Source: Escherichia coli
Lineage (GTDB): Bacteria > Pseudomonadota > Gammaproteobacteria > Enterobacterales > Enterobacteriaceae
Length of the DNA stretch: 64,000 bases
Direction: 5' to 3' (one strand)
Assembly (NCBI RefSeq): GCF_030384885.1
Contig: NZ_CP128615.1
A program made the translations under genes and the position numbers. The notes under the pieces were generated by a model that worked only from the letters and a program-made list of their open reading frames with translations, had not been told where the DNA came from and did no database searches. Below, in pieces: positions 2,862 to 64,000 of this stretch. Numbering within the stretch: position 1 is the stretch's first letter; the number at the start of each line of letters is the position of its first letter.

Positions 2862-3092
2862 ATGCGCACAGTTTCGATATTTAAAAACGGCAATAACCGC
2901 GCCATCCGTCTGCCCCGGGACCTGGATTTTGATGGCGTCAGCGAGCTGGAGATCGTCCGGGAAGGGGACAGCATCATTCTGCGTCCCGTCCGGCCGACCT
3001 GGGGCTCGTTCGCGCAGCTGGACAGGGCCGATCCGGACTTTATGGCGGAGCGTGAGGATGTGGTCAGCGATGAAGGACGCTTTGAGCCATGA
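2862..3092 (+). CDS. vagC: VagC/VapB-type antitoxin (AbrB/SpoVT fold)
   Basis: 76-aa ORF MRTVSIFKNGNNRAIRLPRDL...; 4-bp overlap with downstream PIN toxin. Confidence 0.9.
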   Translation: MRTVSIFKNGNNRAIRLPRDLDFDGVSELEIVREGDSIILRPVRPTWGSFAQLDRADPDFMAEREDVVSDEGRFEP

Positions 3093-3505
3093 AGAAAACC
3101 TGGATGCTCGACACCAACATCTGCTCGTTCATCATGCGCGAGCAGCCGGCAGCGGTGCTGAAGCGCCTGGAGCAGGCGGTGCTGCGCGGTGATCGCATTG
3201 TGGTCTCGGCCGTGACGTATGCCGAGATGCGCTTCGGCGCCACCGGCCCGAAGGCCTCGCCGCGCCATATTCAGCTGGTCGACGCGTTCTGCGCGCGCCT
3301 CGATGCCGTCCTGCCCTGGGACCGCGCCGCGGTGGACGCCACGACGGACATCCGGGTGGCGCTGCGCCTAGCCGGGACGCCGATCGGCCCGAATGACACG
3401 GCCATTGCCGGGCACGCCATCGCGGCGGGCGCCATCCTGGTGACGAACAATGTGAGAGAGTTTGCGCGGGTCCCGGGCCTGGTGCTGGAAGACTGGGTGA
3501 AATAA
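3089..3505 (+). CDS. vagD: VagD/VapC PIN-domain toxin
   Basis: 138-aa ORF MKKTWMLDTNICSFIM... with PIN acidic residues; overlaps vagC stop. Confidence 0.9.
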   Translation: MKKTWMLDTNICSFIMREQPAAVLKRLEQAVLRGDRIVVSAVTYAEMRFGATGPKASPRHIQLVDAFCARLDAVLPWDRAAVDATTDIRVALRLAGTPIGPNDTAIAGHAIAAGAILVTNNVREFARVPGLVLEDWVK

Positions 3506-3993: not shown

Positions 3994-4567
3994 AGTATCG
4001 CTTTATCAACGATCACCGTGAAATCTGGTCGATCGTTACAATGTGTCGGGTCCTTAAGGTTGCCCGTGCCGGATTTTATGTCTGGCTCCATAACCCTGTA
4101 TCTGCCGGAGAAAAGGATAACCAGCGACTGCTGGAACTCATCCGCGACTCCTATACGCTGAGTGGTGGAGTTTACGGTTATCGCAGGGTTCATGGCGATC
4201 TTCGCGAAATTGGCGAAGTGTGCAGCAGAAACCGGGTTGCCAAAATCATGAGGAAAAACAGGATTCAGGCTATACATGGTTATAAAGTGCCACGCGGGAG
4301 CCGGGGACGACCGTCACTGATAGCGCCTAATCACGTGCGGCGTGAATTTACTGTAGTGAAGCCCAATCAGGTGTGGGTCACCGACATCACCTACATCCGC
4401 ACCTGGCAGGGCTGGCTGTACCTGGCAGTGGTTATCGATCTTTTTGCCCGTAATGTGGTGGGCTGGTCGATGAAGCCGACACTGTCGCGCGAGCTGGCAC
4501 TGGATGCGCTGCTGATGGCGGTCTGGCGACGTAAACCTGAAGAAAACGTCATTGTGCACAGCGATAG

Positions 4568-5941
4568 TAATAATGCCGATGTCAGTCTTTACCACCACTT
4601 AGTTTGCCGTTTAACCAGATTGGTGTGATTACTGATGCAGTGAAGACCTTCCCGCATCCTGACTCACACAGCGATCGACCTTTTGTGTCCTGCCCTGGAC
4701 CCGTCGGTTGCCGGAAGCGCCTTCATGCGAGGCATCTCCTCACCGATGCGCGTGACTCAAGAAGGGCCTGACGGCTTGTCTCGTTACTGTCCTGTCCGGG
4801 TTATCTGTCTGGAGATTCAACTCTGTTTCCTCACAGGAGCTCTGTCATGGTTGATAAAGTTACCGAAGCTGCCGTTGTGGGTGGCGTGGATACACATAAA
4901 GATTTGCACGTTGCCGCTGTCGTAGATCAGAACAATAAAGTCCTTGGGACTCAGTATTTCTCCACAACACGACAAGGTTACCGGCAGATGCTGGCATGGA
5001 TGACCTCGTTTGGGACATTAAAGCGAATTGGTGTTGAGTGCACAGGTACCTATGGTTCCGGTTTGCTTCGTTATTTTCAGAACGCCGGGTTAGAAGTTCT
5101 TGAGGTGACTGCTCCAGACCGGATGGAGCGACGCAAACGGGGTAAAAGTGACACAATTGATGCTGAATGTGCCGCTCATGCAGCATTCTCAGGCATCAGG
5201 ACAGTTACTCCCAAAACGCGTGATGGCATGATTGAGTCCCTGCGGGTATTAAAAACTTGCCGAAAAACAGCAATATCAGCCCGCAGAGTCGCTCTCCAGA
5301 TTATCCATTCAAATATTATCTCTGCCCCGGATGAATTACGTGAACAGCTCAGAAATATGACGCGCATGCAGCTCATCAGGACCCTGGGTTCCTGGAGACC
5401 TGATGCCAGTGAATACCGCAATGTAACCAACGTTTATCGCATTTCATTAAAGTCCCTTGCCCGACGCTATCTCGAGTTACATGACGAAATCGCTGATCTG
5501 GATGTCATGATTGCGGCAATTGTCGACGAGTTGGCACCTGAGCTGATTAAACGTAATGCTATCGGATACGAAAGCGCTTCACAGTTGCTGATCACTGCCG
5601 GAGACAATCCTCAACGGTTAAGATCAGAATCAGGATTTGCGGCACTGTGTGGTGTCAGCCCGGTCCCCGTTTCTTCTGGAAAAACGAACCGTTACCGACT
5701 TAATCGTGGTGGAGATCGTGCTGCAAATAGTGCACTTCACATCATCGCCATCGGACGCTTACGAACTGACGCAAAAACAAAGGAATATGTCGCCAGGCGT
5801 GTAGCCGAAGGACATACAAAAATGGAAGCGATACGCTGTCTAAAGCGATATATCTCCCGCGAAGTTTACACGTTACTGCGCAATCAAAACAGGCGGATCA
5901 ACAGTATCCCGATAACAGCTTGACTCTTAGAAGGGCGTCCA
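4568..5941 (+). mobile_element. IS110-family insertion sequence (about 1374 bp, no obvious terminal IRs)
   Basis: precisely interrupts the IS3 orfB codon run HSD|RGSQY (2-bp junction ambiguity); carries a DEDD-type transposase gene. Confidence 0.75.
4847..5923 (+). CDS. IS110-family (DEDD) transposase
   Basis: 358-aa ORF; N-terminal GVDTHKDLHVAAV, C-terminal ...NRGGDRAANSALHIIAIGRLR... typical of IS110 family. Confidence 0.85.
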   Translation: MVDKVTEAAVVGGVDTHKDLHVAAVVDQNNKVLGTQYFSTTRQGYRQMLAWMTSFGTLKRIGVECTGTYGSGLLRYFQNAGLEVLEVTAPDRMERRKRGKSDTIDAECAAHAAFSGIRTVTPKTRDGMIESLRVLKTCRKTAISARRVALQIIHSNIISAPDELREQLRNMTRMQLIRTLGSWRPDASEYRNVTNVYRISLKSLARRYLELHDEIADLDVMIAAIVDELAPELIKRNAIGYESASQLLITAGDNPQRLRSESGFAALCGVSPVPVSSGKTNRYRLNRGGDRAANSALHIIAIGRLRTDAKTKEYVARRVAEGHTKMEAIRCLKRYISREVYTLLRNQNRRINSIPITA

Positions 5942-8401: not shown

Positions 8402-8417
8402 GTTTCACCTCAGCGCC

Positions 8418-11090
8418 TTAGAAAAAATCATCTTGGAATGCCAAATCAATGGTTACCGCGTATTGGCTATAACGGGTTCTCATTTCCGCATTCTCAAGAA
8501 CTAATGTGTATTGAGCGTTTCTATCGAACTGGGAGCCAATAAGCTTTAACCTAGCTTCGCGAGTACGTTCATCCATCACTTTACTCACGCTATCAAAGTT
8601 AATCGTTTCACGACTGGAGACTTCATTACCTTGTGCATCGACGATATAGACATCCAACAACCGTGCGACGAAACGCTCGCCTACAGGGTCTGTCTGAATA
8701 AATCTGACCTTGTCGATATTGTTTACTAATTTGATGGGCTGAGTGGCTGCTACAACACCTACCGGTTGTTTCTCATGTTTTGCTGCTTGTTCTTTTTGTA
8801 GCTCTCGCACATGTAGTACCGGTACGCAGACTTCCTGTAGCATCGCTCCGCCATGCACAAACTTAGCACCACCAACGAAGTGGAAGCGTTGAGCCGCTTT
8901 TGGAAGCAGGAACTCGGTATCACTTGAGCCATGAGCCGTATCGTTAATTGAGCCTTTCCAACAGGCTTCATCTGAAGGCAAGTTATTACCAACGATATAA
9001 CGTTTCTTGGCTTCTATCGCTCCAGCAGGTTTGGTTTTCAACGAGGTTTTGTCAGCCGCTACAAGTGCTTTTTGTTGGAAGAGGAAGCCATGGTCAGCAG
9101 TGATCACAACTCGGCTGCCGTTTAGACGGTTGATGACCCGCCCAACGAGGTCTTTTAGCTCTTCAATGGCACTACGACAGGCTTCAAACGTTTTCTCTTC
9201 AGTTGCTGCCTTATCACCAATCGCATCAATGGTATCGTGATAGATATAAACGACTTCTACGTCTCGAACCTTGTCACGCCCCTCCTGGTTACTCCAGCTC
9301 ATCAGTTCCTTAGAACTCACTGCCATACCACCTACTTTTTGTAGGATGGCGTTGCGGTTGTCTAGACCCTGTGAAGAAATACCATCCACATAAACAGCCG
9401 TGCCTTGCTCTGGCTGGTAACTGAGCGCCTTATGAGGCAATAATGCCGCCATCCCAAGTTGGGTATAACTCGGCAAAACGCCCAACTGCGTAGACACCTC
9501 AGCCTTAAATCGCTTCTCGTTGTTAATGATAGCGCCAAGCTCATTCGCAATTTCAAAACGCAGGGCATCAGAGATGATCACAAACACTCGTTTTGTCTGT
9601 TTCAGACTCAGTCGTGTGCGAACTTCTTTTTCATAGAAGTCATACTGGTGCGGTACGCCAGAAATCTGCCACTTTTCAAGTAATTTTTCATTGGCCAAGT
9701 GACGATCCCATGCAAGGCCAAGCTCATACAAGTACCAGTTGGTATAAATGCTTTCGACTTCGTCGTCGAGCTGACGCAGTATGTCTGCACCTTTACTCAA
9801 TACAGAGTGCACATGCTCATTGAACAAACGGTAAGCCTGGTCAAAACGATAAATGTCTGTGGTATAGGCGTCGTACATTGCTTTCGCGTTATCAAAGTGG
9901 AACCCATCCACATAGCGATTTCGCAAGTGCATTAACTCTTCAGCGTTGCGGATAGCTTCATAAATTGCGAAGTATTCTTTGCGTGACAATGTCCAGTGGC
10001 TAGAAAGACGTCTTGATAAGACCGTATCAAACTGAACCCGGTCTAGCGCTTTACTGCTATCGAGCAAATCACGAACTAAACCACGGATTATGGCCTGTTC
10101 CACAGCTTCGAACGTTTCGCATTCGATAAGCTCAACCGGATGGTACTGCCCAGCACGAGTCGAAATTTCCAACTGTTGGCTAAGCACCTTAGAGATGCTT
10201 TCGTAGTAAGCGGCGAAAGAGCGGCTGTCGCGCCAGCTCACCATAAACGCCAAGGCTGTCGCCCGGCCTGATGCGCTTTTTAGAACATTGTTAAGCAACC
10301 AATCGCGTTCAACACCTTCAATTTGGCTCCAGAATTCAGTACAGAATAATTTCAACACGAAGTCTGAGAAGGTTGGCTCTTCAACTGTATAGCCAAAACC
10401 CTCACTCAGATATGCCCAGAGTGAGGTCTCAAGATCAAACTTTCCTAGCTGGCTCCATAAAGGTTGACCAAGGCTTTCATCTTCGATATAAGCCGCATAT
10501 TCGCGTAGTAACCCAAGCAGAATGTCCGACAAAGACGCAGAATCAGCTTTTACAACCACTGCCATCATCTTTCTGTCTAACGACAGTTCGTCTTCGTTCT
10601 CAGTCACCCACTTTTTTAAACCGGCTATGCGCTGTTTATTGGCAAAAAAGCTCTGGCGCTTACGAATGTGCGTGCGAAGCGCCATTTTCGGAATACCCAG
10701 CTCATTAAGCAGCATTGAGCTGTGATCAGCAAAAAACTGCTCGCTATACAAACGCACGTCTAGCAACCAATCGCGGTCAGGCTCTGGCTCAGCGCTTGGA
10801 AAATAGATAAGGAATTTAGCTTCACGCTCATCTACTTCAATGCGTTTTTTCACTGCCAATACAGACTCATTGCCCATATTGAGGATGGTCAAATCATTTG
10901 GAAGCACCCGTGCAGTTTTATCCGCCGATTTATCGTCTGTTTCTTTTGCAAGCCCTTCTTTTGCAATAGAGAGGGCGTTAGCTAAATGCTCAAGCTCTTC
11001 AGTAAAGCTTTGCTCTGGGTCGTACCAAAACACAATGCGGCTTTGTTCAAATTTGGCAGCAACGCCTTGTGCCAGTTCACTAATCTGCAT
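8418..11090 (-). CDS. pglZ: BREX PglZ (alkaline-phosphatase superfamily)
   Basis: 890-aa ORF between pglX and brxL; N-terminal VFWYDP motif; size and position typical of PglZ. Confidence 0.85.
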   Translation of the reverse strand: MQISELAQGVAAKFEQSRIVFWYDPEQSFTEELEHLANALSIAKEGLAKETDDKSADKTARVLPNDLTILNMGNESVLAVKKRIEVDEREAKFLIYFPSAEPEPDRDWLLDVRLYSEQFFADHSSMLLNELGIPKMALRTHIRKRQSFFANKQRIAGLKKWVTENEDELSLDRKMMAVVVKADSASLSDILLGLLREYAAYIEDESLGQPLWSQLGKFDLETSLWAYLSEGFGYTVEEPTFSDFVLKLFCTEFWSQIEGVERDWLLNNVLKSASGRATALAFMVSWRDSRSFAAYYESISKVLSQQLEISTRAGQYHPVELIECETFEAVEQAIIRGLVRDLLDSSKALDRVQFDTVLSRRLSSHWTLSRKEYFAIYEAIRNAEELMHLRNRYVDGFHFDNAKAMYDAYTTDIYRFDQAYRLFNEHVHSVLSKGADILRQLDDEVESIYTNWYLYELGLAWDRHLANEKLLEKWQISGVPHQYDFYEKEVRTRLSLKQTKRVFVIISDALRFEIANELGAIINNEKRFKAEVSTQLGVLPSYTQLGMAALLPHKALSYQPEQGTAVYVDGISSQGLDNRNAILQKVGGMAVSSKELMSWSNQEGRDKVRDVEVVYIYHDTIDAIGDKAATEEKTFEACRSAIEELKDLVGRVINRLNGSRVVITADHGFLFQQKALVAADKTSLKTKPAGAIEAKKRYIVGNNLPSDEACWKGSINDTAHGSSDTEFLLPKAAQRFHFVGGAKFVHGGAMLQEVCVPVLHVRELQKEQAAKHEKQPVGVVAATQPIKLVNNIDKVRFIQTDPVGERFVARLLDVYIVDAQGNEVSSRETINFDSVSKVMDERTREARLKLIGSQFDRNAQYTLVLENAEMRTRYSQYAVTIDLAFQDDFF

Positions 11091-25112: not shown

Positions 25113-25376
25113 ATGAAGAAGCGTTTTTCCGACGAACAGATCATCAGTATTCTCCGCGAAGCCGAAGCTGGGGTACCCGCCCGTGAACTCTGCCGCAAGC
25201 ATGCCATTTCCGATGCCACGTTTTACACCTGGCGTAAGAAGTATGGCGGTATGGAGGTGCCTGAAGTTAAGCGCCTGAAGTCGCTTGAGGAAGAGAACGC
25301 CAGACTCAAGAAGCTGCTTGCCGAAGCCATGCTGGATAAAGAGGCGCTTCAGGTGGCTCTTGGGCGAAAGTACTGA
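25113..25376 (+). CDS. IS3-family transposase OrfA
   Basis: 87-aa ORF MKKRFSDEQIISILREAEAGVPARELCRKHAISDATFYTWRKKYGG... Confidence 0.85.
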   Translation: MKKRFSDEQIISILREAEAGVPARELCRKHAISDATFYTWRKKYGGMEVPEVKRLKSLEEENARLKKLLAEAMLDKEALQVALGRKY

Positions 25377-25399
25377 CGACAGACCAGAAGCGGGAAGCC

Positions 25400-25624
25400 G
25401 TGATGCTGATGTGTGATGCGACCGGTCTGTCGCAACGTCGTGCCTGCAGGCTTACAGGTTTGTCCCTGTCGACCTGCCGCTATGAGGCTCACCGTCCGGC
25501 TGCTGATGCGCATTTATCAGGGCGCATCACTGAGCTGGCACTGGAGCGCAGGCGTTTTGGCTACCGTCGTATTTGGCAATTGCTGCGCCGTGAAGGGCTT
25601 CATGTTAATCATAAGCGCGTGTAG
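25400..25624 (+). pseudogene. IS3-family transposase OrfB, N-terminal fragment only
   Basis: 74-aa ORF ending at the truncation point. Confidence 0.7.
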
Positions 25625-46708: not shown

Positions 46709-47011
46709 TCAGACGGGATTTTGCTTATCAATTATTGAGAACAGAAATTTTCCTGAATCATCAATACTATACTTAGCAAGTAAAGGTGTTTTCTCATTTA
46801 TCTGCTTGAGTGCAGGATCAAGGAAAGATCGTTTCAACTCTGCCAAGTTCTTCTGCTGGGATTCCGGTAAGACGAAACGGTCATTTAACCAAGCATGAGT
46901 AGTAACCCATAAGCCTGAAGATTTGAATTGAGCAAGACTTTCATAAAGGCGGATCGTCCGGGGATTTCGAAGACTGCCACAATCGCGGAGCGAGTAGGTG
47001 GTGAACTGGTT
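46709..47011 (-). pseudogene. Rep_3-family replication initiator, C-terminal ~100 codons only (truncated by IS1)
   Basis: translation ...NQFTTYSLRDCGSLRNPRTIRLYESLAQFKSSGLWVTTHAWL... aligns with the C-terminus of the intact RepA at 54593-55459. Confidence 0.8.
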
Positions 47012-47026
47012 GGTAATGACTCCAAC

Positions 47027-47789: not shown

Positions 47790-49700
47790 TCTGGATTATC
47801 GTCACGCTGTTAAATATGTCGCGGTAGGGATACCCGTTACCGGATACCCCCCGCACAGATCCCGGCGTGCGCGATTTACGCACCGGGCTCCTGCCTCGGG
47901 TGTCTGGCGGTGAACCGCTCCACAGGCCATGGATGAAGAACCCGAACCCTTGGTAGCCATGCGGCTGCCAGTTTGTTTGCTTTCGTCCAGGTCGTATCAT
48001 CCTTCTGGCTCCTGCGCCTGAGCGCCCGGCGCCAGAGGTTTGTTACGTGTGTCCTGAACTTCTGCATGGTGGGGAAGTTGCCCGGTACCGAGTGATAGTT
48101 CAGGTATCCCTGAACCACTCTCCTGAGCCATTTTCCCTGTTCGGGGATTGAGTAATGCCAGCGCCTTCGCAGACCGTCTTTGATGGCTTTCAGAGTTGCC
48201 GTCATCCGATCCCGGCGGGTCTTTCGTATCAGCATGAACCTGCCGTTGCGATCTTTCCCGCTGATGTGCGTGAACCCGAGGAAGTTGAACGTTTCTGGTT
48301 TGCCTTTTCCCCTGATGGCACGGTTTTCGGCAGCGAAGCGGCCGAACTCCATCAGACGGGTTTTCTCCGGGTGAACCGTGAGTCCGAACTCCCTCAGTCT
48401 GCGCTGCATGGCTATACGGAAGCGCCGGGCATCGTATCGTTTGTCGAACCCGATGACGATGTCATCGGCGTATCTGACCATTACCACATTGCCTGTGGCA
48501 TAGCGACGTCGCCACTGATGCGCCCACAGATCGAAGACGTAGTGGAGGTATATGTTTGCCAGCAGCGGTGAGATGACCGCACCCTGTGGGGTGCCTTCCT
48601 CCGTTGCTCGCCATTGACCCTCCTCCAACGTCCCGGCTGTGAGCCACTTACGTATGAGCCTGATTACGCTCCGGTCGCCGATCCGATGCTCTGTGAACCT
48701 GATCAGCCATTCGTGGCTCACCCTGTCGAAGAACTGACTGATGTCGGCATCCAGTACCCAGTTTACGTTAGTGCGTACCAGCCCTGTGGCCAGTGCGTCC
48801 AGTGCATCGTGCTGGCTTCGCCCGGGTCTGAACCCGTATGAGAACCCCATAAAGTCGTTTTCATAGACTGCGTTCAGGATTTTCACCAGCGCATACTGGA
48901 CGATCTTGTCCTCCAGCGAGGCGATGCCGAGCGGGCGTTGTTTTCCATCCGCTTTTGGGATGTAGTGACGCCTGCCGGGCTGCGCCCTGTAGCTGCCCTA
49001 ATGTAGCCTCCGGTGCAGATCTGTTATGTTGTTCTTCATGTTTCCGGCGTAGTCCATCCACCTGATGCCATCCACTCCGGCGGCCGCTTTCCTGCTCAGG
49101 GAGAGGAATGCGGCTTCCAGTGCTTCGACTGTCAGCAGGTGGAACAATGCTGTAAACCGTTCTTTCTTCCGCTGCTTCGCAGCTTCCCGCACGCGTGACA
49201 GCCTCTGTGACATGCTTTCCCGGCTCTGTGTCCGGCGCATGTGTGGCTGTTCCGCGTTCCCCTTGGCCCCGCTCCTTCGCTCCACTGACTCCGCTCCTTT
49301 CGGGTTGTTCGCCTGCTTCGCCGCTACTATGAGCGAGTCCGACTTCTCCTCTCCGTACATCACCGGCTATGACTCCTCGTCTTCCCGGTGCGGGCCGTCT
49401 CCGACACTGGCAGATGGTCAGAGGGGAGATCTCCCGGTTCCCGCGTAGAGATCGTATTGACATGCCAGGGTCTCAGACCCCGCCGGGTCCATGTGGCACT
49501 CGCAGTATCGCACCCTATGATGTTGCCTTCCGTTAACAGTACAACGTCGGCACCCGGTAATTTAATATACATTTCGTGGCTCAATGGCTGGCCTGTCAAC
49601 ACCCCTGTCAACGCTTCGCCCCATACCTCGCGGTATGCAACGCATGACTCGGGGACCTTGTGGATTGCTGGTCCTTCAATGGTCGGGGACTTTCACCCCT
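47790..49700 (-). mobile_element. bacterial group II intron (boundaries approximate)
   Basis: intron-encoded RT/maturase ORF; domain V-like hairpin in the reverse complement of 47845-47880; 5' boundary not pinned. Confidence 0.6.
47876..49363 (-). pseudogene. group II intron reverse transcriptase/maturase, interrupted by one in-frame TAG
   Basis: two same-frame ORFs (48998-49363 and 47876-48886) separated by a TAG at 48998-49000; RT motifs ...GVDGIRWMDY..., ...FSYGFRPGRSQHDAL..., ...YADDIVIG... Confidence 0.75.
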
Positions 49701-51552: not shown

Positions 51553-52530
51553 TTATTGACTCAAATTTCTGTCAAGGACCTCGTTGATAGCCTTGTCCAG
51601 TTCATCCTGAATCACTTTTGACATACGGCTAAACTCATAAGTCAGCGTACGCCCTTTCACACGCTTACGCGCGAACTTGTCCTTTTCTTCAAAAGACCAG
51701 AGTGGGGAAACCACTGACTTTTCCTTGGGAGATGGATCTATCAATGCCTGAGATGCCTGAGAAATCAGCTTCAGTATACTGGCTTTCTGTTCGTCTTCTG
51801 GTCGCTCGCCTTCACTCAAAATTGCATCGAGCTGAGCTGATACAGACTGAATGAGTTCTTCAGGCGTTAATCCCTTTTCACTGAGTTTTTCATTAACTTC
51901 TAAAAGAAGTTTATAGTCACTAAACGATAGCTCCGACTGAACCGGGAACAGAGAAATCAAGTCTTGCGGTACGGCCGCCGCCTGCAGCGCCCTGGTAACT
52001 TTAGCTTGAGATAACCCCTCCAGTTCAGCAATTTCCTTTTGATTAAATCCGGACTCTTTAAGAGCGATCAATCTCAGGCCAATCTCCCGAAGATTATGTT
52101 CTTTAGCTGTCTGGATATCTTTAGCCAGTTGGCGAGCTTCATCAGCTGATAAATGCTCTTCGGTAACCATTACATCAAGGCCTGTACGGACAAAAATTGC
52201 TGAGGCTCGCCGTCTTGAACCATCCAGTATCTCAATCCTTTCACTTTGCTTAATACCAATACAGGGAAAGAACTGCTGAAACTTAATCGTCTGGATAATG
52301 GATTTCAGGGATTCCCTGGTCAGTGCAAGTTGATCTCTTCCGTTGTTTTCCTGGTTTACGAAGGTCTTACTTTCAACTTCAGATGCAGGCACCCGAACAA
52401 ACCTGAACGTTACCTTCCTGCCGGTTTTTAAGGTAAATACCTGGCTTCTACCGGTGTCCGTCATTTCCGCAATTGACGCCTGGGTATTTAACTGTCTGCC
52501 GATGGTTTTTCTTTTCTCATTCGACATCAC
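51553..52530 (-). CDS. parB: ParB/SopB-family partition protein
   Basis: 325-aa ORF downstream of parA, overlapping its stop. Confidence 0.8.
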   Translation of the reverse strand: MMSNEKRKTIGRQLNTQASIAEMTDTGRSQVFTLKTGRKVTFRFVRVPASEVESKTFVNQENNGRDQLALTRESLKSIIQTIKFQQFFPCIGIKQSERIEILDGSRRRASAIFVRTGLDVMVTEEHLSADEARQLAKDIQTAKEHNLREIGLRLIALKESGFNQKEIAELEGLSQAKVTRALQAAAVPQDLISLFPVQSELSFSDYKLLLEVNEKLSEKGLTPEELIQSVSAQLDAILSEGERPEDEQKASILKLISQASQALIDPSPKEKSVVSPLWSFEEKDKFARKRVKGRTLTYEFSRMSKVIQDELDKAINEVLDRNLSQ

Positions 52531-53732
52531 ATACCTCCGTTAGTACGAATGAACTCGATGCGATCAAAGACTGCCTTCGCAAAGTCTTCCGCTGCTGATT
52601 TTGCGCTTTTTAGTGCCTCTGTACTTCCATCATAGGTTGCTGGATTTGCTGAAATAACTGTGTCAAAAGTCTCCCCACAACGTTCGAAACCATCCAGTCT
52701 TGGCAGAACCATGTCTAGCATATCGGCACCGAAAACCTCTTTGGCCTGACTATGGCAAATTTTGTGATCAGACTTGTTCAGGATCTTGGACATGAAGCCG
52801 ACATTACCGATGAGATTGCAGGTGTGCCCATCCATTTCGATGGAATCTATGAGGGCAGGGAGGCTGGCCACAAACTTCAGGGAAGAATGAAAATCAACCG
52901 TCGCCGGTGGAAGAGGGGTCAACATCAGGTCTGCCGCCCCAATGCAGTTTTTCAGGAACGCATCAAGGTGAGGACCACTATCAAGGAAAATAAAGTCGTA
53001 GTCATGCTGGAGCTTGTCGATAATGTTCTCTTTAAGCACCGCATGAATATTTTTCCCTGGCAGATGTTCTTCACACAATCCCTTCCAGCCTTCAGCAAGG
53101 AATGCATCGTCAATGGAAGCGGGGATTACATCAACACCAGGGATAATAGACGGTACTATAAAATCGGAAAGTAATTCTTCACGAGACACGTTCTGGAGCA
53201 TGGCCTGAGCAGCCGTATTTTCAACCAAGCCCACTGAATTCTCATGGCTCAGGAACATTGTCAGAGATGCCTGCGGATCGAAATCGATGGCCAGAATACG
53301 CAGGTCTTCGAACAGAAGCTGAGGATGAGCTCGAAAAGCATGTGATAATGAAGCGGTAGAAACTGTCTTGGAACCACCACCTTTAAGATTACATACAAAA
53401 ATCGTAAAGGCTTTATCGAAGCGATCCCTGTACTTCGGTACTTTACGATGGTTATACAGATCGATGACATTCTGAATCGTCATCGCGTATTTCATCGTAT
53501 TACCAGAAGGTTTCTTTTTAAAAATGTAGCCACCGGCTTCCATTTCGGACACAGCATACTCAACACTGCCTTTACTGAGCTTAGGCAGCTTATACAGAGC
53601 GGCTTTGCTGTATTCCTGATAGAACTCGGTAAGCTTCAATTCCTCTTTTTGCTGTCGGATACTTTCGCTCAAAGATGTCAGAAGCTTACCTGCACGTGTA
53701 GCGACTTTCCGTAACTGCTCAATATTGTCCAT
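52527..53732 (-). CDS. parA: ParA/SopA-family type Ia partition ATPase
   Basis: 401-aa ORF; deviant Walker A (CNLKGGGSKTVSTASL) after an N-terminal DNA-binding extension. Confidence 0.85.
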   Translation of the reverse strand: MDNIEQLRKVATRAGKLLTSLSESIRQQKEELKLTEFYQEYSKAALYKLPKLSKGSVEYAVSEMEAGGYIFKKKPSGNTMKYAMTIQNVIDLYNHRKVPKYRDRFDKAFTIFVCNLKGGGSKTVSTASLSHAFRAHPQLLFEDLRILAIDFDPQASLTMFLSHENSVGLVENTAAQAMLQNVSREELLSDFIVPSIIPGVDVIPASIDDAFLAEGWKGLCEEHLPGKNIHAVLKENIIDKLQHDYDFIFLDSGPHLDAFLKNCIGAADLMLTPLPPATVDFHSSLKFVASLPALIDSIEMDGHTCNLIGNVGFMSKILNKSDHKICHSQAKEVFGADMLDMVLPRLDGFERCGETFDTVISANPATYDGSTEALKSAKSAAEDFAKAVFDRIEFIRTNGGM

Positions 53733-54125
53733 TTATCACCTCATGACGTTTTTTGTCATTTTGAACAAAAAGTGTCATGTTGCAAGAAAAAAATCATATT
53801 GTTTTGATTTCGCTCTCAACAGAAGGGGGATGAAGCTCGACGGGCGTGCTACTAAATCACACTGCAGCAACACGCAGACGCACTTTTGACCATCAACAGC
53901 AACTCATACAAAAGGGCTTTGAGAAAGGTATTCAACTTGCAAGACAGGAGAGTCATTCAGAAGGATTCTGATTTTAGTTACGACCAGTGCAATGCTGAGC
54001 CTTATGTATCAGCGCTCGCCGCAGCCATGTAACCGAGCGTAGCGAGCGAACTGGCGAGGAAGCGAAGAGGAACCGTTCCGGCAGATAGCTCTTACGCTCA
54101 GCACAAGAAGAGTTTTCCATCCTCT

Positions 54126-54545
54126 GTGGGAAACAGGTCAACTTTAATGGACGCTCCGGACTATGGGAAACAGGTCAACTTCGCGGACGGCCCGGACTAT
54201 GGGAAACAGGTCAACTTCACGGGCGGCCGGGAGTGTGGGGAACAGGTCAACTTCGCGGACGGCCCGGATTATGGGAAACAGGTCAACTTCGCGGGCGGCC
54301 GGGACTGTGGGAAACAGGTCAACTTTGCAGACGGCCCGGACTGTGGGAAACAGGTCAACTTCGCGGGCGGCCGGGAGTGTGGGGAACAGGTCAACTTCGC
54401 GGACGGCCCGGACTAAGGGAAACAGGTCAGCTTCTCGGACGGCCCGGACTATGGGAAACAGGTCAACTTCTCGGACGGTCGGGAGTGTGGGAAACAGGTC
54501 AAGTTAGGCAAGCACTATGGGAAACACAGCAAGTTCAGTATCCCC
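54126..54545. repeat. tandem array of about 11-12 copies of a 36-bp repeat (putative repA iterons / copy-control array)
   Basis: unit TATGGGAAACAGGTCAACTTCGCGGACGGCCCGGAC; immediately downstream of repA. Confidence 0.7.
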
Positions 54546-54592: not shown

Positions 54593-55459
54593 CTATTGTT
54601 TTTTATCAAGAAAATTAAACAGCAAGCGACCATCTTCTTCAGTGGTATATGTTACCTTTAATGGCGTCTTCTCATTAATTTTCTTCAGAGCAGGTTCCAG
54701 GAAGGTACGCTTCATTTCAGCAATATTGTTTTTCTGCGAGGCAGGGAGCATAAACCTTTCACATAACCAGTCATGTGTGGTGATCCAGACACCAGTGCTC
54801 CGGAACTGACACAGGCTTTCATAAAGCCGGATGACACGAACACTATTAAGCTGGCCACAGTCATAGAGAGAATAGGTAGTGAACTGGGAGGTTAAGCCGA
54901 CCAGGAATGGCATGACCTTGTAGTTAAATTCAATCTGCCAGGAACCCCGGCCTCGCTTCATTCCTGCTTCAGCCAGCCACGGACGTTTAACTTCTTCAAA
55001 CTCACCTTCTTTTGGATAAAAGGTAACCGTTGATTCGCCCAGAGCATTTACCCCAGCCTTCACATCACGACTGGCGACAGACGTAGCGACATTGAAGTAT
55101 TTGACGTAATCGGAAACGCTGATTTTGAAGAGCGGCAATACGTCAGAGTCATCTTCCTGGCTGTCATTAAAATAGGCCTGCATGAGGCATAACCACAGCA
55201 CACGTTTTGCCTGAAGAGGCAGGTAATATGCAGCTTCGGTCAATTCGTTAGATTGCTTTATACTGGCGCGTTTTTTAAACGTTTTAGTAGCTGGCAAGAG
55301 TGCTTGAGTATCCATTTCAATGCCTATGGGTAAATTTTTACCCACCCATAATGACAGTGAAAACAGAAATTGCAAGCTATCGCGATACTTATCCACCGGA
55401 AAAATCTGCACTTTATCCACAAGTGGATAATTGAGAACTGAACTTGACCTCTTTCCCAT
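54593..55459 (-). CDS. repA: Rep_3-family replication initiator (RepFIB-type)
   Basis: 288-aa ORF; N-terminal IKQSNELTEAAYYLPLQAKRVLWL typical of Rep_3. Confidence 0.85.
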   Translation of the reverse strand: MGKRSSSVLNYPLVDKVQIFPVDKYRDSLQFLFSLSLWVGKNLPIGIEMDTQALLPATKTFKKRASIKQSNELTEAAYYLPLQAKRVLWLCLMQAYFNDSQEDDSDVLPLFKISVSDYVKYFNVATSVASRDVKAGVNALGESTVTFYPKEGEFEEVKRPWLAEAGMKRGRGSWQIEFNYKVMPFLVGLTSQFTTYSLYDCGQLNSVRVIRLYESLCQFRSTGVWITTHDWLCERFMLPASQKNNIAEMKRTFLEPALKKINEKTPLKVTYTTEEDGRLLFNFLDKKQ

Positions 55460-55700
55460 AGCTTGTTGATGCGTATCCCATAGCTTGTTGACACAAAACC
55501 CACTGATACGTGATTAATTTCCCATATTATGTTTACCAGTTGCCCATACAGGCCCCCTCTCAGGCCGCACTGTACGCGGCTTTCAGGCTCCCTAAAAGAT
55601 GTAAAATAAAGAAAAAGAATAAAAAAGTACTTTATAAAAATATGCCCGTGGATAAGTGGATAACCCCGAGGGGAGGTGATTTTTCAGGCATTGAGCGTAA
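55460..55700. other. putative oriV region (DnaA boxes, short direct repeats, AT-rich tract)
   Basis: TTATCCACA at 55414-55422, TGGATAAGTGGATAA near 55640, two copies of TCCCATAGCTTGTTGA at 55460-55500. Confidence 0.5.
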
Positions 55701-56221
55701 GCAGAATTTATAAGTTTTGTTCCCTGGTGCTTCCTCGCTCACTCGGGGCTTCGCCCTGTCGCTCGACTGCGGCGAGCACTGCTGGCTCGATCATATCCGT
55801 GGCCGGAAGATACTACTCCTCCCCCGAGTCGCTCTCCAGAGCCGGCTACAGCGAGACAACCCGCACGAAGATTTCTATCGTCCCTGCAGACATATTCGAA
55901 TCGTTTTTATTAACCCTGGCTTCCGTCGTGACAGAACACTACGTCCTGTAAAAGGGGGACTAAGGCCCCTGAATCACACACCTGAATAATGCGGAGTTTT
56001 ACGATAATGTCATTGCTGGAAACTTTCCTGACCGCTTCTCAGGGGGCAACAATCCTGTTCCTTGCCATGCTGATCTACTGGCAAAAGCGATAAATCCAAG
56101 CGGGCTGGCCTTTGGCCAGCTTCGCTGTATAAGGGGAAAAATGCGGCATATCCAGACATTTCACTAGGCAATTTGAATTCAGATATCTATGCTTGGGATC
56201 CGGTCAACAGGAGGTAACAAG

Positions 56222-56479
56222 ATGAAACTTGAAACTATACAGATAGATAATACCGTAAGGAGTGGTCTTAATTCTTTCACTGACGGGGTGATTATTCGTG
56301 ATACAAAGGTATTGATCACGCTCAATCTCCCGGATGGACAGAAAACCACTATTGAGGGGGAATGGCGGCATATGTCGGACGCCAACAGGTTGTCAGAACG
56401 TATTACGATGCTTCAGCATGCGATCTATGAGCAGTATGAGGAATACAGAGCAGATATTCCCGTCAGCTGGTCCAGATAA
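56222..56479 (+). CDS. hypothetical protein (85 aa)
   Basis: RBS AGGAGG then MKLETIQIDNTVRSGL...; no recognisable motif. Confidence 0.5.
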   Translation: MKLETIQIDNTVRSGLNSFTDGVIIRDTKVLITLNLPDGQKTTIEGEWRHMSDANRLSERITMLQHAIYEQYEEYRADIPVSWSR

Positions 56480-56536: not shown

Positions 56537-57315
56537 TTAAATATTCCCTTTCAGCATGGCTACCGCATCCGCTTCGGGCATCTGAAACTGAACTCGATGC
56601 CGCGCAGCAACATCAAGTGCGAACACCTTCGTATAGACTTCCGTCGAGCTAATCGATTTGTGGCCCATCAGGCTCTGCAAAACCTTCAGTGGTATGCCGG
56701 CATACAGCACATATGCATCGCGTAGGAGTGGCGGAACGTATGCGGGGTGACCGGCACCGAGAATGTCACCCCGTCGACGGCGGCCGCTTCAACCGCTTCG
56801 CCAATCCAGGTCCGTACTGTCCGGTCGGTGATGTCCCAGATGCGGGCTTTCTCTGTTCTGCCGGTACGCTTGTTGCGTCTTTCCAGCGGAATTTTCAGGG
56901 TGGCCACCATCATCTGCAGCTGGCTGACGTAGTGGTGATCGGAAAGCGGAACCAGACGATGAGCCTGGCTACCGGCGGGAGCTCGGCCGGCTGTCCTGGC
57001 CGCTTTTTCGGTGCGCTGCTTAAGCGTGGCCAGCTGCACGAACGGATACGGTGGCACCAGCGAAAAATCCCCCCGGGTCAGCGCCAGCGCCTCGTTGATA
57101 CGTGCGCCGGTGTTCCAGAGGGTTGCCAGCAGCATCTTGCGGTGCAAATCGGGCACATAATGGAGCAGGGCGCTGACTTCCGGTGCCAGCAGGTATTTCG
57201 GTAGTTCATCTTGAACGAGCGCCATCTGGCGCAGGGCCAGCGCGGCGGGATAGTCAATGGCCACCGGCATTTGCGCCGGCTGCTGCGGGTGAGAATATGA
57301 TAAGAGGCCGCTCAT
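56537..57315 (-). pseudogene. tyrosine site-specific recombinase (XerD/ResD-like) with frameshift upstream of the catalytic Tyr
   Basis: ORF 56686-57315 ends ...HTFRHSYAMHMCCMPAYH*; the adjacent frame continues LYAGIPLKVLQSLMGHKSISSTEVYTKVF... Confidence 0.7.
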
Positions 57316-61562: not shown

Positions 61563-61677
61563 AAATTTTCCTTGCACATCCATTTTTTTGCGAATATTAT
61601 TATTCCTGCTGAATATGATTCAATATCGCACGCTACTCATCCATCCCAGGATAATGAGTACATAGGTTGAAGTTTCA

Positions 61678-61705
61678 ACACCCCCATTACGGGGGTGTTT
61701 TTTTT
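61678..61705 (+). terminator. rho-independent terminator
   Basis: ACACCCCCATTACGGGGGTGT followed by T8. Confidence 0.7.
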
Positions 61706-63430: not shown

Positions 63431-64000
63431 CAGGATCCTGTCACTCTTTCGACCGACAGCTTATGGCATACAGTTGGGCTCGTAAGATCCAGAGTCAATA
63501 ACTGACAGGGTTTATTCTGTCATCCTCCGGCAACAAAGGCATATACGATATTCACTTATTTTGTCGGCCCAACGGCTTTTTACAGTAGCTCGTTTTGCCC
63601 AACTGATGCTACAGCTCTTTGGTTTGCTTCATCACGGATATCAGCTCCGACACAGGCACAGCTGACTGGTTGCAACGTCTGCACTTCTCTGGACCTGAAA
63701 CGTCAATTATCAGGATTCTGACGATTAGTCTTAAGACTGTCGGTAAATTAAGTGATGCCAGTTGTCAGGATATTCATGGAGCCAGTCTGCATGCGCCTCT
63801 GGCGTTGAGACAAACATATGAAGTGTATTTCGGATATGACTGTACGCTCAGGAAGTACGGCAGATTCCGTCAAAAATTACCTGTAAAGACAGACTTCAGA
63901 AAAAACAGTGCTCGCCGCAGACCGGTGACCGGGCGAAGCCCGCGAACCGGCGAGGAAGCGCAATATATCTGTAGTTACAGTGAGCAGGTACGCCCTGAAG

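Follow-up and report, generated by a model that had tools for sequence, protein, structure and literature searches.

A conserved element of the ssiA kind beside the IncR replication origin

Just outside the origin of a Rep_3-family replicon in Escherichia coli (contig NZ_CP128615.1) lies a 50-nt segment, at positions 55729–55778 of the 64,000-nt stretch of DNA that we analysed, hereafter the window. Its + strand reads GCTTCCTCGCTCACTCGGGGCTTCGCCCTGTCGCTCGACTGCGGCGAGCA. A sequence-only reading had likened this segment to DNA beside the ColE1/pBR322 origin, at roughly 35 of 50 positions, and had guessed that it might be a single-strand initiation (ssi) signal for lagging-strand priming. The locus raises the questions of whether the resemblance is real, what kind of element the segment represents, and what a site of this kind would do beside an iteron origin.

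Location of the segment and relation to ColE1 and F

Sequence identity assigns the region to an IncR replicon: many IncR plasmids are 100% identical to a 251-nt query that includes the segment, and the typing was taken from one such match, plasmid NZ_CP026203. The features of the window that bear on the segment are listed below. The + strand assigned to copy A is the strand that reads GCTTCCTCGC...CTGCGGCGAGC.

51553–52530, − strand: parB
52527–53732, − strand: parA
54002–54075 (core 54014–54063), − strand: ssiA-type copy B, between the 36-bp iteron array and parA
54114–54541, + strand: array of about 12 iteron-like repeats with a 36-bp period, downstream of repB, the incC analogue (repeat search and sequence)
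54593–55459, − strand: repB, the Rep_3-family IncR initiator (Pfam Rep3_N, 1.8e-31; Rep3_C, 2.4e-13)
55452–55548, + strand: origin iterons of the TCCCATAGCTTGTTGA type, with 22-bp spacing (repeat search)
55596–55645, no strand assigned: AT-rich stretch, presumed unwinding region (from the sequence; role by analogy with F oriV-2, PMC4398462)
55648–55665, + strand: two tandem DnaA-box-like 9-mers, GTGGATAAG and GTGGATAAC (from the sequence)
55717–55789 (core 55729–55777; predicted hairpin 55727–55779), + strand: ssiA-type copy A (71.4 bits with covariance model R1)
56686–57315, − strand: resD-like integrase gene
63898–63971 (core 63910–63959), − strand: ssiA-type copy C, about 460 nt upstream of RepFIB repA

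The placement just outside the Rep_3 origin, as originally proposed, agrees with this layout: repB is followed by the origin iterons, then by the DnaA-box-like 9-mers, which lie some 65 nt from copy A at the outer limit of the IncR origin, and then by the segment. No gene is annotated under the segment in the best 25 plasmid matches. Two overlapping open reading frames (55676–55951 and 55717–55989) were rejected as genes, having no Pfam hit and being unannotated in related plasmids. The 251-nt region is matched by 1807 of 5426 complete E. coli genomes, and at least 5000 plasmid records carry an 86-nt stretch.

Four other features of the window were noted in passing. A tblastn fragment at 46721–47017 (−), 61% identical to residues 189–287 of IncR RepB, looks like the remnant of another Rep_3 replicon. 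Group II intron domains D1–D4 are matched by Rfam at 49468–49693 (−; 186.6 bits), which indicates insertion of a group II intron a few kb from the IncR partition genes. Rfam also matches the small RNA UptR at 61608–61699 (+; 123.3 bits against a gathering score of 100), in the interval separating the IncR from the RepFIB replicon, and an IS1222 ribosomal frameshifting element at 25343–25460 (+; 152 bits, Rfam) marks an IS3-family insertion sequence.

To assess the resemblance to ColE1 we used the authentic record (NC_001371). In global alignments, 55729–55777 is identical to ColE1 1311–1360 at 41 of 50 positions and to a pBR322/pMB1-type variant at 40 of 50, a stronger resemblance than had been estimated. 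With blastn-short, the match resolves into two blocks that are collinear on the ColE1 minus strand, window 55729–55743 with ColE1 1360–1346 (15/15) and window 55758–55777 with ColE1 1330–1311 (19/20). The similarity is significant: the local alignment score is 31, compared with 13.4 ± 1.5 and a maximum of 20 in 1000 dinucleotide-preserving shuffles, each aligned against the whole of ColE1 on both strands, and none of the shuffles (0/1000) reaches 31. The pBR322 string given in the sequence-only reading proved to be genuine as well. Its 50-nt core (GCTTCCTCGC...CTGCGGCGAGC) occurs verbatim in three loci (L050, L126 and L177), in each of which it adjoins ColE1-type RNA II homology, and its trailing GG is present in L050 and L126.

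In ColE1, RNAI is matched by Rfam at 645–749 on the − strand, which puts RNA II and the leading strand on the + strand and the origin near 1210. The matched segment (1311–1360) is about 100–150 nt downstream of this origin and is adjoined by a DnaA box at 1271–1279. The pMB1 sequence of pUC vectors ends just beyond the ssiA hairpin; because it reaches just past the hairpin, retention of ssiA in pUC-type constructs fits the element described here. Allen et al. describe pUC-type constructs that keep ssiA, of which one lacks ssiB and the other has it displaced (PMC3167613), and reviews place n'-pas/ssiA, a primosome assembly site, at the same ColE1 position as the matched segment (PMC3167613; PMC3640518). 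ColE1-like plasmids are also routinely annotated with an ssi stem-loop beside oriV. Judged by position and sequence, the matched ColE1 segment is the ssiA (n'-pas) site. The other pas of ColE1, ssiB, is not matched by the covariance model described below with its filters off, and thus lies outside the family.

Both arms of the ssiA site of ColE1, pMB1 and p15A (n'-pas, rriA, pas-BL), GCTTCCTCGCTCACT and GTCGYTCGRCTGCGGCGAGC, match copy A nearly exactly, whereas the central 14 nt differ (GGGGCTTCGCCC against GACTCGCTACGCTC). The two elements have in common predicted helices I and II, a nearby DnaA box and an origin-proximal site.

Alignment to the F plasmid (NC_002483), one of the checks suggested for the segment at the outset, likewise gave a clear match. 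Positions 55632–55787 are identical to F at 142 of 157 positions (about 90%), in an alignment that spans the DnaA boxes and the segment and falls in the resD–repE intergenic region of F, between resD and the oriV-2 DnaA boxes. In over 2000 plasmid records, which carry RepFIA DNA, the 251-nt query is matched at about 91% identity in its left part only. In the pEC958 paper, "ssiA (single strand initiation)" is located immediately outside the oriV-2 DnaA boxes of F (PMC4398462). Because the match lies at the place where the literature puts the ssiA of F, we identify the segment, on sequence and position, as the IncR ortholog of the RepFIA ssiA site. Imber, Low and Ray (PNAS 1983, 80:7132) reportedly showed a primosome assembly site in the mini-F ori2 region, and Nomura et al. 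(Gene 1991, 108:15) are said to have catalogued the ssi signals of F, R6K, R100 and ColE2.

The IncR replicon also shares the order of F RepFIA, namely resD, ssi, DnaA boxes, AT-rich region, iterons, rep, incC-type iterons, second copy and parA/sopA. The 50-nt cores of F ssiA and copy A differ by one inserted base, and in the apical stem the IncR copy has G.T where F has A–T. The replicons differ elsewhere: F RepE and IncR RepB are both Rep_3 proteins, yet they give no tblastn cross-match at E 1e-5, and the F iterons differ from those of IncR. F carries an inverted pair of elements around repE/incC, at 4032–4081 on the minus strand and 5567–5616 on the plus strand (NC_002483), of which the latter, between incC and sopA, is the equivalent of copy B. 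The IncR copy is unannotated in all records examined. To the right of the ssi, two islands at 55861–55907 and 55929–55947 are shared with F downstream of resD (42/47 and 18/19 identical; F counterparts 3935–3889 and 3867–3849, NC_002483).

Sequence family and covarying hairpin

The family can be written as GCTTCCTCGC-N29-31-CTGCGGCGAGC, a pattern that copy A matches exactly at 55729–55777. The pattern CTTCCTCGC-N20-45-GCGGCGAG matches the window three times, at 55729 (+), 54014 (−) and 63910 (−), compared with 0.01 matches expected. Copies A and B flank the IncR replicon and are inverted relative to each other. RepFIB repA lies past the right end of the window, and the context of copy C was taken from plasmid NZ_CP024151, in a stretch that is 99.9% identical and has the element at 8411–8460 and repA at 8918–9895.

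Genome, viral and metagenome collections were scanned with patterns and, once chance matches in GC-rich genomes had been set aside, gave 40 distinct true variants. On genome contigs, a loose 17-base pattern returned mostly chance matches in GC-rich genomes and only about 15 true members; a tighter pattern, used on the metagenomes, picked out true members. From the 40 variants we built a covariance model, R1, and searched with its filters off. Copy A scores 71.4 bits (E 4e-17), copy B 74.9 bits and copy C 83.9 bits. Matches to R1 are confined to the three copies in the window, the pair in F and the one in ColE1, with the next-best match at 13 bits; the model finds no further diverged copies in the window, beside RepFIB as a second copy, or at ColE1 ssiB.

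When the 40 variants were aligned with 12-nt flanks, compensatory base changes among them supported an imperfect hairpin of about 55 nt. RNAalifold proposed the outer helix NNGCTT/GAGCNN, the two outermost pairs of which lie outside the bases fixed by the search pattern and covary (columns 11–67: CG 19, GC 14, AU 4; columns 12–66: CG 25, UA 9). A first, hand-drawn outer helix, CTCG/CGAG, was dropped because the flanking columns covary with the RNAalifold helix. The full model has 19 pairs, arranged in the outer helix, a CGC/GCG helix, a middle helix and an apical hairpin. Pairings of the middle helix include CCGGT/ACCGG, CTCAT/ATGAG, CCCGT/ACGGG and CCAGT/ACTGG, and the apical pair 33–40 is GC in 32 variants and AU in 7, around a variable loop triplet. 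Over the 40 variants and 19 pairs, 84% of cells are paired. Double-change cells number 79, compared with 32.9 ± 5.3 in shuffles, and the covariation score is 0.239, compared with 0.112 in shuffles and at most 0.119 in slid controls; these values come from related sequences in which eight of the pairs are invariant by construction of the search pattern.

Folding of copy A itself, also suggested at the outset as a check, gave a divided answer. Its minimum-energy DNA fold contains helices I and II and the apical hairpin, but its stability is ordinary, with z-scores of −0.07 (+ strand) and −0.53 (− strand). The middle helix is largely unpaired in copy A, in ColE1 and in the ColE1/A-type subfamily. 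Across single copies the z-scores range from −0.07 to −2.4 and carry no signal, so we relied on covariation. Mismatch counts do not tell which strand folds: G.T mismatches outnumber A.C mismatches by 46 to 12, but a single invariant T.G accounts for 40 of the 46, and with that pair left out the counts are 6 and 12.

The pattern of substitution bears on the possibility that the element acts as a duplex protein-binding site, for a ResD-type recombinase or a nucleoid protein, its palindrome reflecting binding of a dimer. The arms are invariant in 40 of 40 variants, which would suit such a site, albeit partly forced by the search pattern, and a resD-like integrase gene lies nearby in both IncR and F. 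However, the bases vary while pairing is kept at the apical pair, along the middle helix and in the flanks of helix I, which is the signature of a folded single strand and not what a sequence-specific duplex site would be expected to show. ColE1-, ColE2- and RepL-type plasmids carry the element with no resD-type gene seen adjoining, and the rfsF sites of F are located elsewhere, near oriV-1 (PMC4398462). We consider a duplex site very improbable.

Covariation cannot separate RNA from single-stranded DNA, and the hairpin might instead work in RNA, as a terminator, attenuator, processing or stability element; the ColE1 site is downstream of RNA II, where read-through transcripts could include it. 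Several observations argue against this: (i) no promoter-like or terminator-like site was found at or facing the element within 55300–56300, and no T-run follows the stem on either strand; (ii) no Rfam family matches the element, and no gene is annotated beneath it in the best 25 plasmid matches; and (iii) the two IncR copies lie in different transcriptional contexts. A function in RNA has only a slight chance of being correct. A Frpo-type single-stranded DNA promoter, an RNA polymerase-dependent ssi of leading regions, would recreate −35 and −10 hexamers in the stem of its hairpin; no promoter-like site was found at or within the element on either strand, and the element does not lie in a leading region.

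Orientation relative to plasmid origins

We located ColE1 RNA II homology and Rep_3 genes in all loci and recorded the direction of the element relative to them, with the CTTCC strand defined as the strand reading GCTTCCTCGC.... A strict orientation rule holds in all elements for which a replicon was identified (107/107):

ColE1-like loci, 25 of 25: 57–96 nt past the end of RNA II homology, CTTCC strand antisense to RNA II
Upstream of Rep_3 genes, 40 of 40: 267–1025 nt upstream of rep, beyond the origin, CTTCC strand antisense to rep
Downstream of Rep_3 genes, 42 of 42: 368–713 nt past rep, CTTCC strand sense to rep

The set upstream of Rep_3 genes comprises IncR, RepFIA, RepFIB and relatives down to about 25% identity.

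It could be argued that the segment resembles ColE1 by chance, or that past recombination with a ColE1-type plasmid left it behind without a function, given that the region is short and GC-rich and that loose arm patterns match many unrelated GC-rich genomes by chance. The shuffles, the copy count, the covariation and the orientation rule refute this reading: the alignment score is more than 10 standard deviations above the shuffles, the three window copies stand against 0.01 expected, and conservation of position, orientation and pairing extends over more than 100 loci from different types of replicon. Its probability is close to nil.

The rule places the same strand differently in different replicons. 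The ColE1 origin is RNA II-primed and Pol I-dependent, and the element lies downstream of it; there, the GCTCGCC...GGAAGC strand points away from the origin and is the displaced template of the lagging strand. This geometry is inverted in IncR, F and RepFIB, where the GCTCGCC...GGAAGC strand reads toward the origin and would thus be the leading-strand template of the outgoing fork. In the window, it is the minus strand of copy A that corresponds to the strand active (displaced) in ColE1. Given the opposite orientation, the ColE1 mechanism is not simply transferable to iteron replicons.

Family members also lie 114–255 nt (mostly 114–126 nt) past the stop codon of ColE2-type rep genes (Pfam Replicase, PriCT_1); the 32-bp ColE2 origin is likewise downstream of rep. 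The elements at these loci share the family sequence and show clear compensatory changes, CTCAT/ATGAG among them; there is one copy per replicon except in L164, which has two in tandem. ColE2 uses its own primase with Pol I to prime the leading strand. We take the ColE2-type member to be the published ssiA(ColE2) of Nomura et al. 1991. The tandem copies of L164 (metagenome contig OGFJ01005182.1), at 2952–3001 and 3305–3354, have the same orientation, are about 350 nt apart and lie beside a ColE2-type rep. Two further loci, L131 (3076–3603) and L191 (1573–2088), have family copies beside small RepL-like (PF05732) genes and may represent pHW126-like plasmids.

Predicted role in priming

The explanation that best accounts for these observations is that the segment is the core of an ssiA-type, that is, phiX174-type PriA-dependent, primosome assembly site, orthologous in IncR to F ssiA and homologous to the ssiA of ColE1, pMB1 and p15A. 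We regard this identification, which is drawn from comparative evidence, as probable, and dependence on PriA in particular as likely. The original guess of an ssi signal is supported by the homology to ColE1 ssiA, the orthology to F and the compensatory changes across the 40 variants. Its lagging-strand component is doubtful, because the strand that is displaced in ColE1 corresponds here to the leading-strand template.

As a PriA-dependent site, the element would be inert as double-stranded DNA. RepB and DnaA would open the adjacent origin, a helicase would then unwind outward, and one exposed single strand of the element would fold into the imperfect hairpin of about 55 nt. PriA would bind this hairpin and recruit PriB, DnaT, DnaC–DnaB and then DnaG primase, so that a mobile primosome would form and RNA primers would be made. 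In a helicase-first iteron origin, the unprimed strand would be the leading-strand template, such that the element would start the leading strand and load the helicase of the opposite fork, with copy B doing likewise on the other side. Because the second copy is inverted and the ColE1-active strand reads toward the origin, priming of the leading-strand template and loading of the opposite-fork helicase appear to be the most likely job of the element in IncR, and a ColE1-style start of lagging-strand synthesis appears less likely. The active strand of copy A is predicted to be the minus strand of the window, GCTCGCCGCAG...GAGGAAGC.

The same geometry as we infer for the IncR and F copies is seen in the G4-type G-site of R1/R100, which, according to Masai and Arai (1989), reportedly lies downstream of oriR on the leading-strand template and starts the leading strand. 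The G-site belongs to a different class, however: it uses DnaG alone and has multiple hairpins, whereas the copy A family forms a single extended hairpin that does not suggest a G-site. The ssiA and ssiB of RSF1010, which are 40-nt inverted repeats in oriV used by the plasmid RepB' primase, share the name but are part of an unrelated system.

A conserved single-strand hairpin could also have its main role outside vegetative firing, either in complementary-strand priming during conjugation or mobilisation or in control of single-stranded DNA, copy number or multimers. In pHW126-like plasmids (pIGRK, pIGMS31), whose ssi-like palindrome we liken to the present element by description, the ssi is dispensable for replication, and its deletion leads to higher copy number and multimers, with no replication failure. 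An inverted pair would guarantee one copy in the active orientation on whichever strand is transferred, and in IncR and F a resD-type resolvase gene adjoins the element. Yet the element keeps a fixed distance and orientation relative to the origins of four replicon classes and is not tied to oriT, and IncR plasmids such as pECO-a7e8 are typed as non-mobilizable and keep both copies. A role of this sort would also be compatible with an origin-proximal one. We judge it unlikely as the main function; as alternative or additional roles, the element may prime the transferred strand or help to avoid single-stranded DNA and multimers.

Returning to priming at the origin, a more general reading can be put forward tentatively, and we hold it to be doubtful as a whole. 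The element may be a portable hairpin module, present in at least four replicon classes (ColE1, ColE2, Rep_3 iteron and RepL-like), that is placed on whichever strand origin firing leaves unprimed. Primer-first origins (ColE1 and, by extension, ColE2) would leave the displaced lagging-strand template unprimed, and helicase-first iteron origins (IncR, F and RepFIB) the leading-strand template. If so, the inverted pair of iteron replicons would start the leading strands and load the second helicase, so that two forks would arise from unwinding that began on one side.

The element is real, conserved and of an already known kind, the ssiA of ColE1 and F, and it is unannotated in IncR records. The family-wide covariation, the occurrence in four replicon classes and the inverted geometry in iteron replicons are mildly new, although parts of this may already have been published (1991). 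As a textbook accessory of plasmid origins, it has little significance beyond annotation, where thousands of identical copies are unannotated. Given the strict but opposite orientation in iteron replicons, the element of iteron plasmids should be called a "lagging-strand priming site" only after a test. The motif and the covariance model provide a quick marker of ssiA-type sites, and of origins, in IncR, RepFIA, RepFIB, ColE1-like and ColE2-like plasmids.
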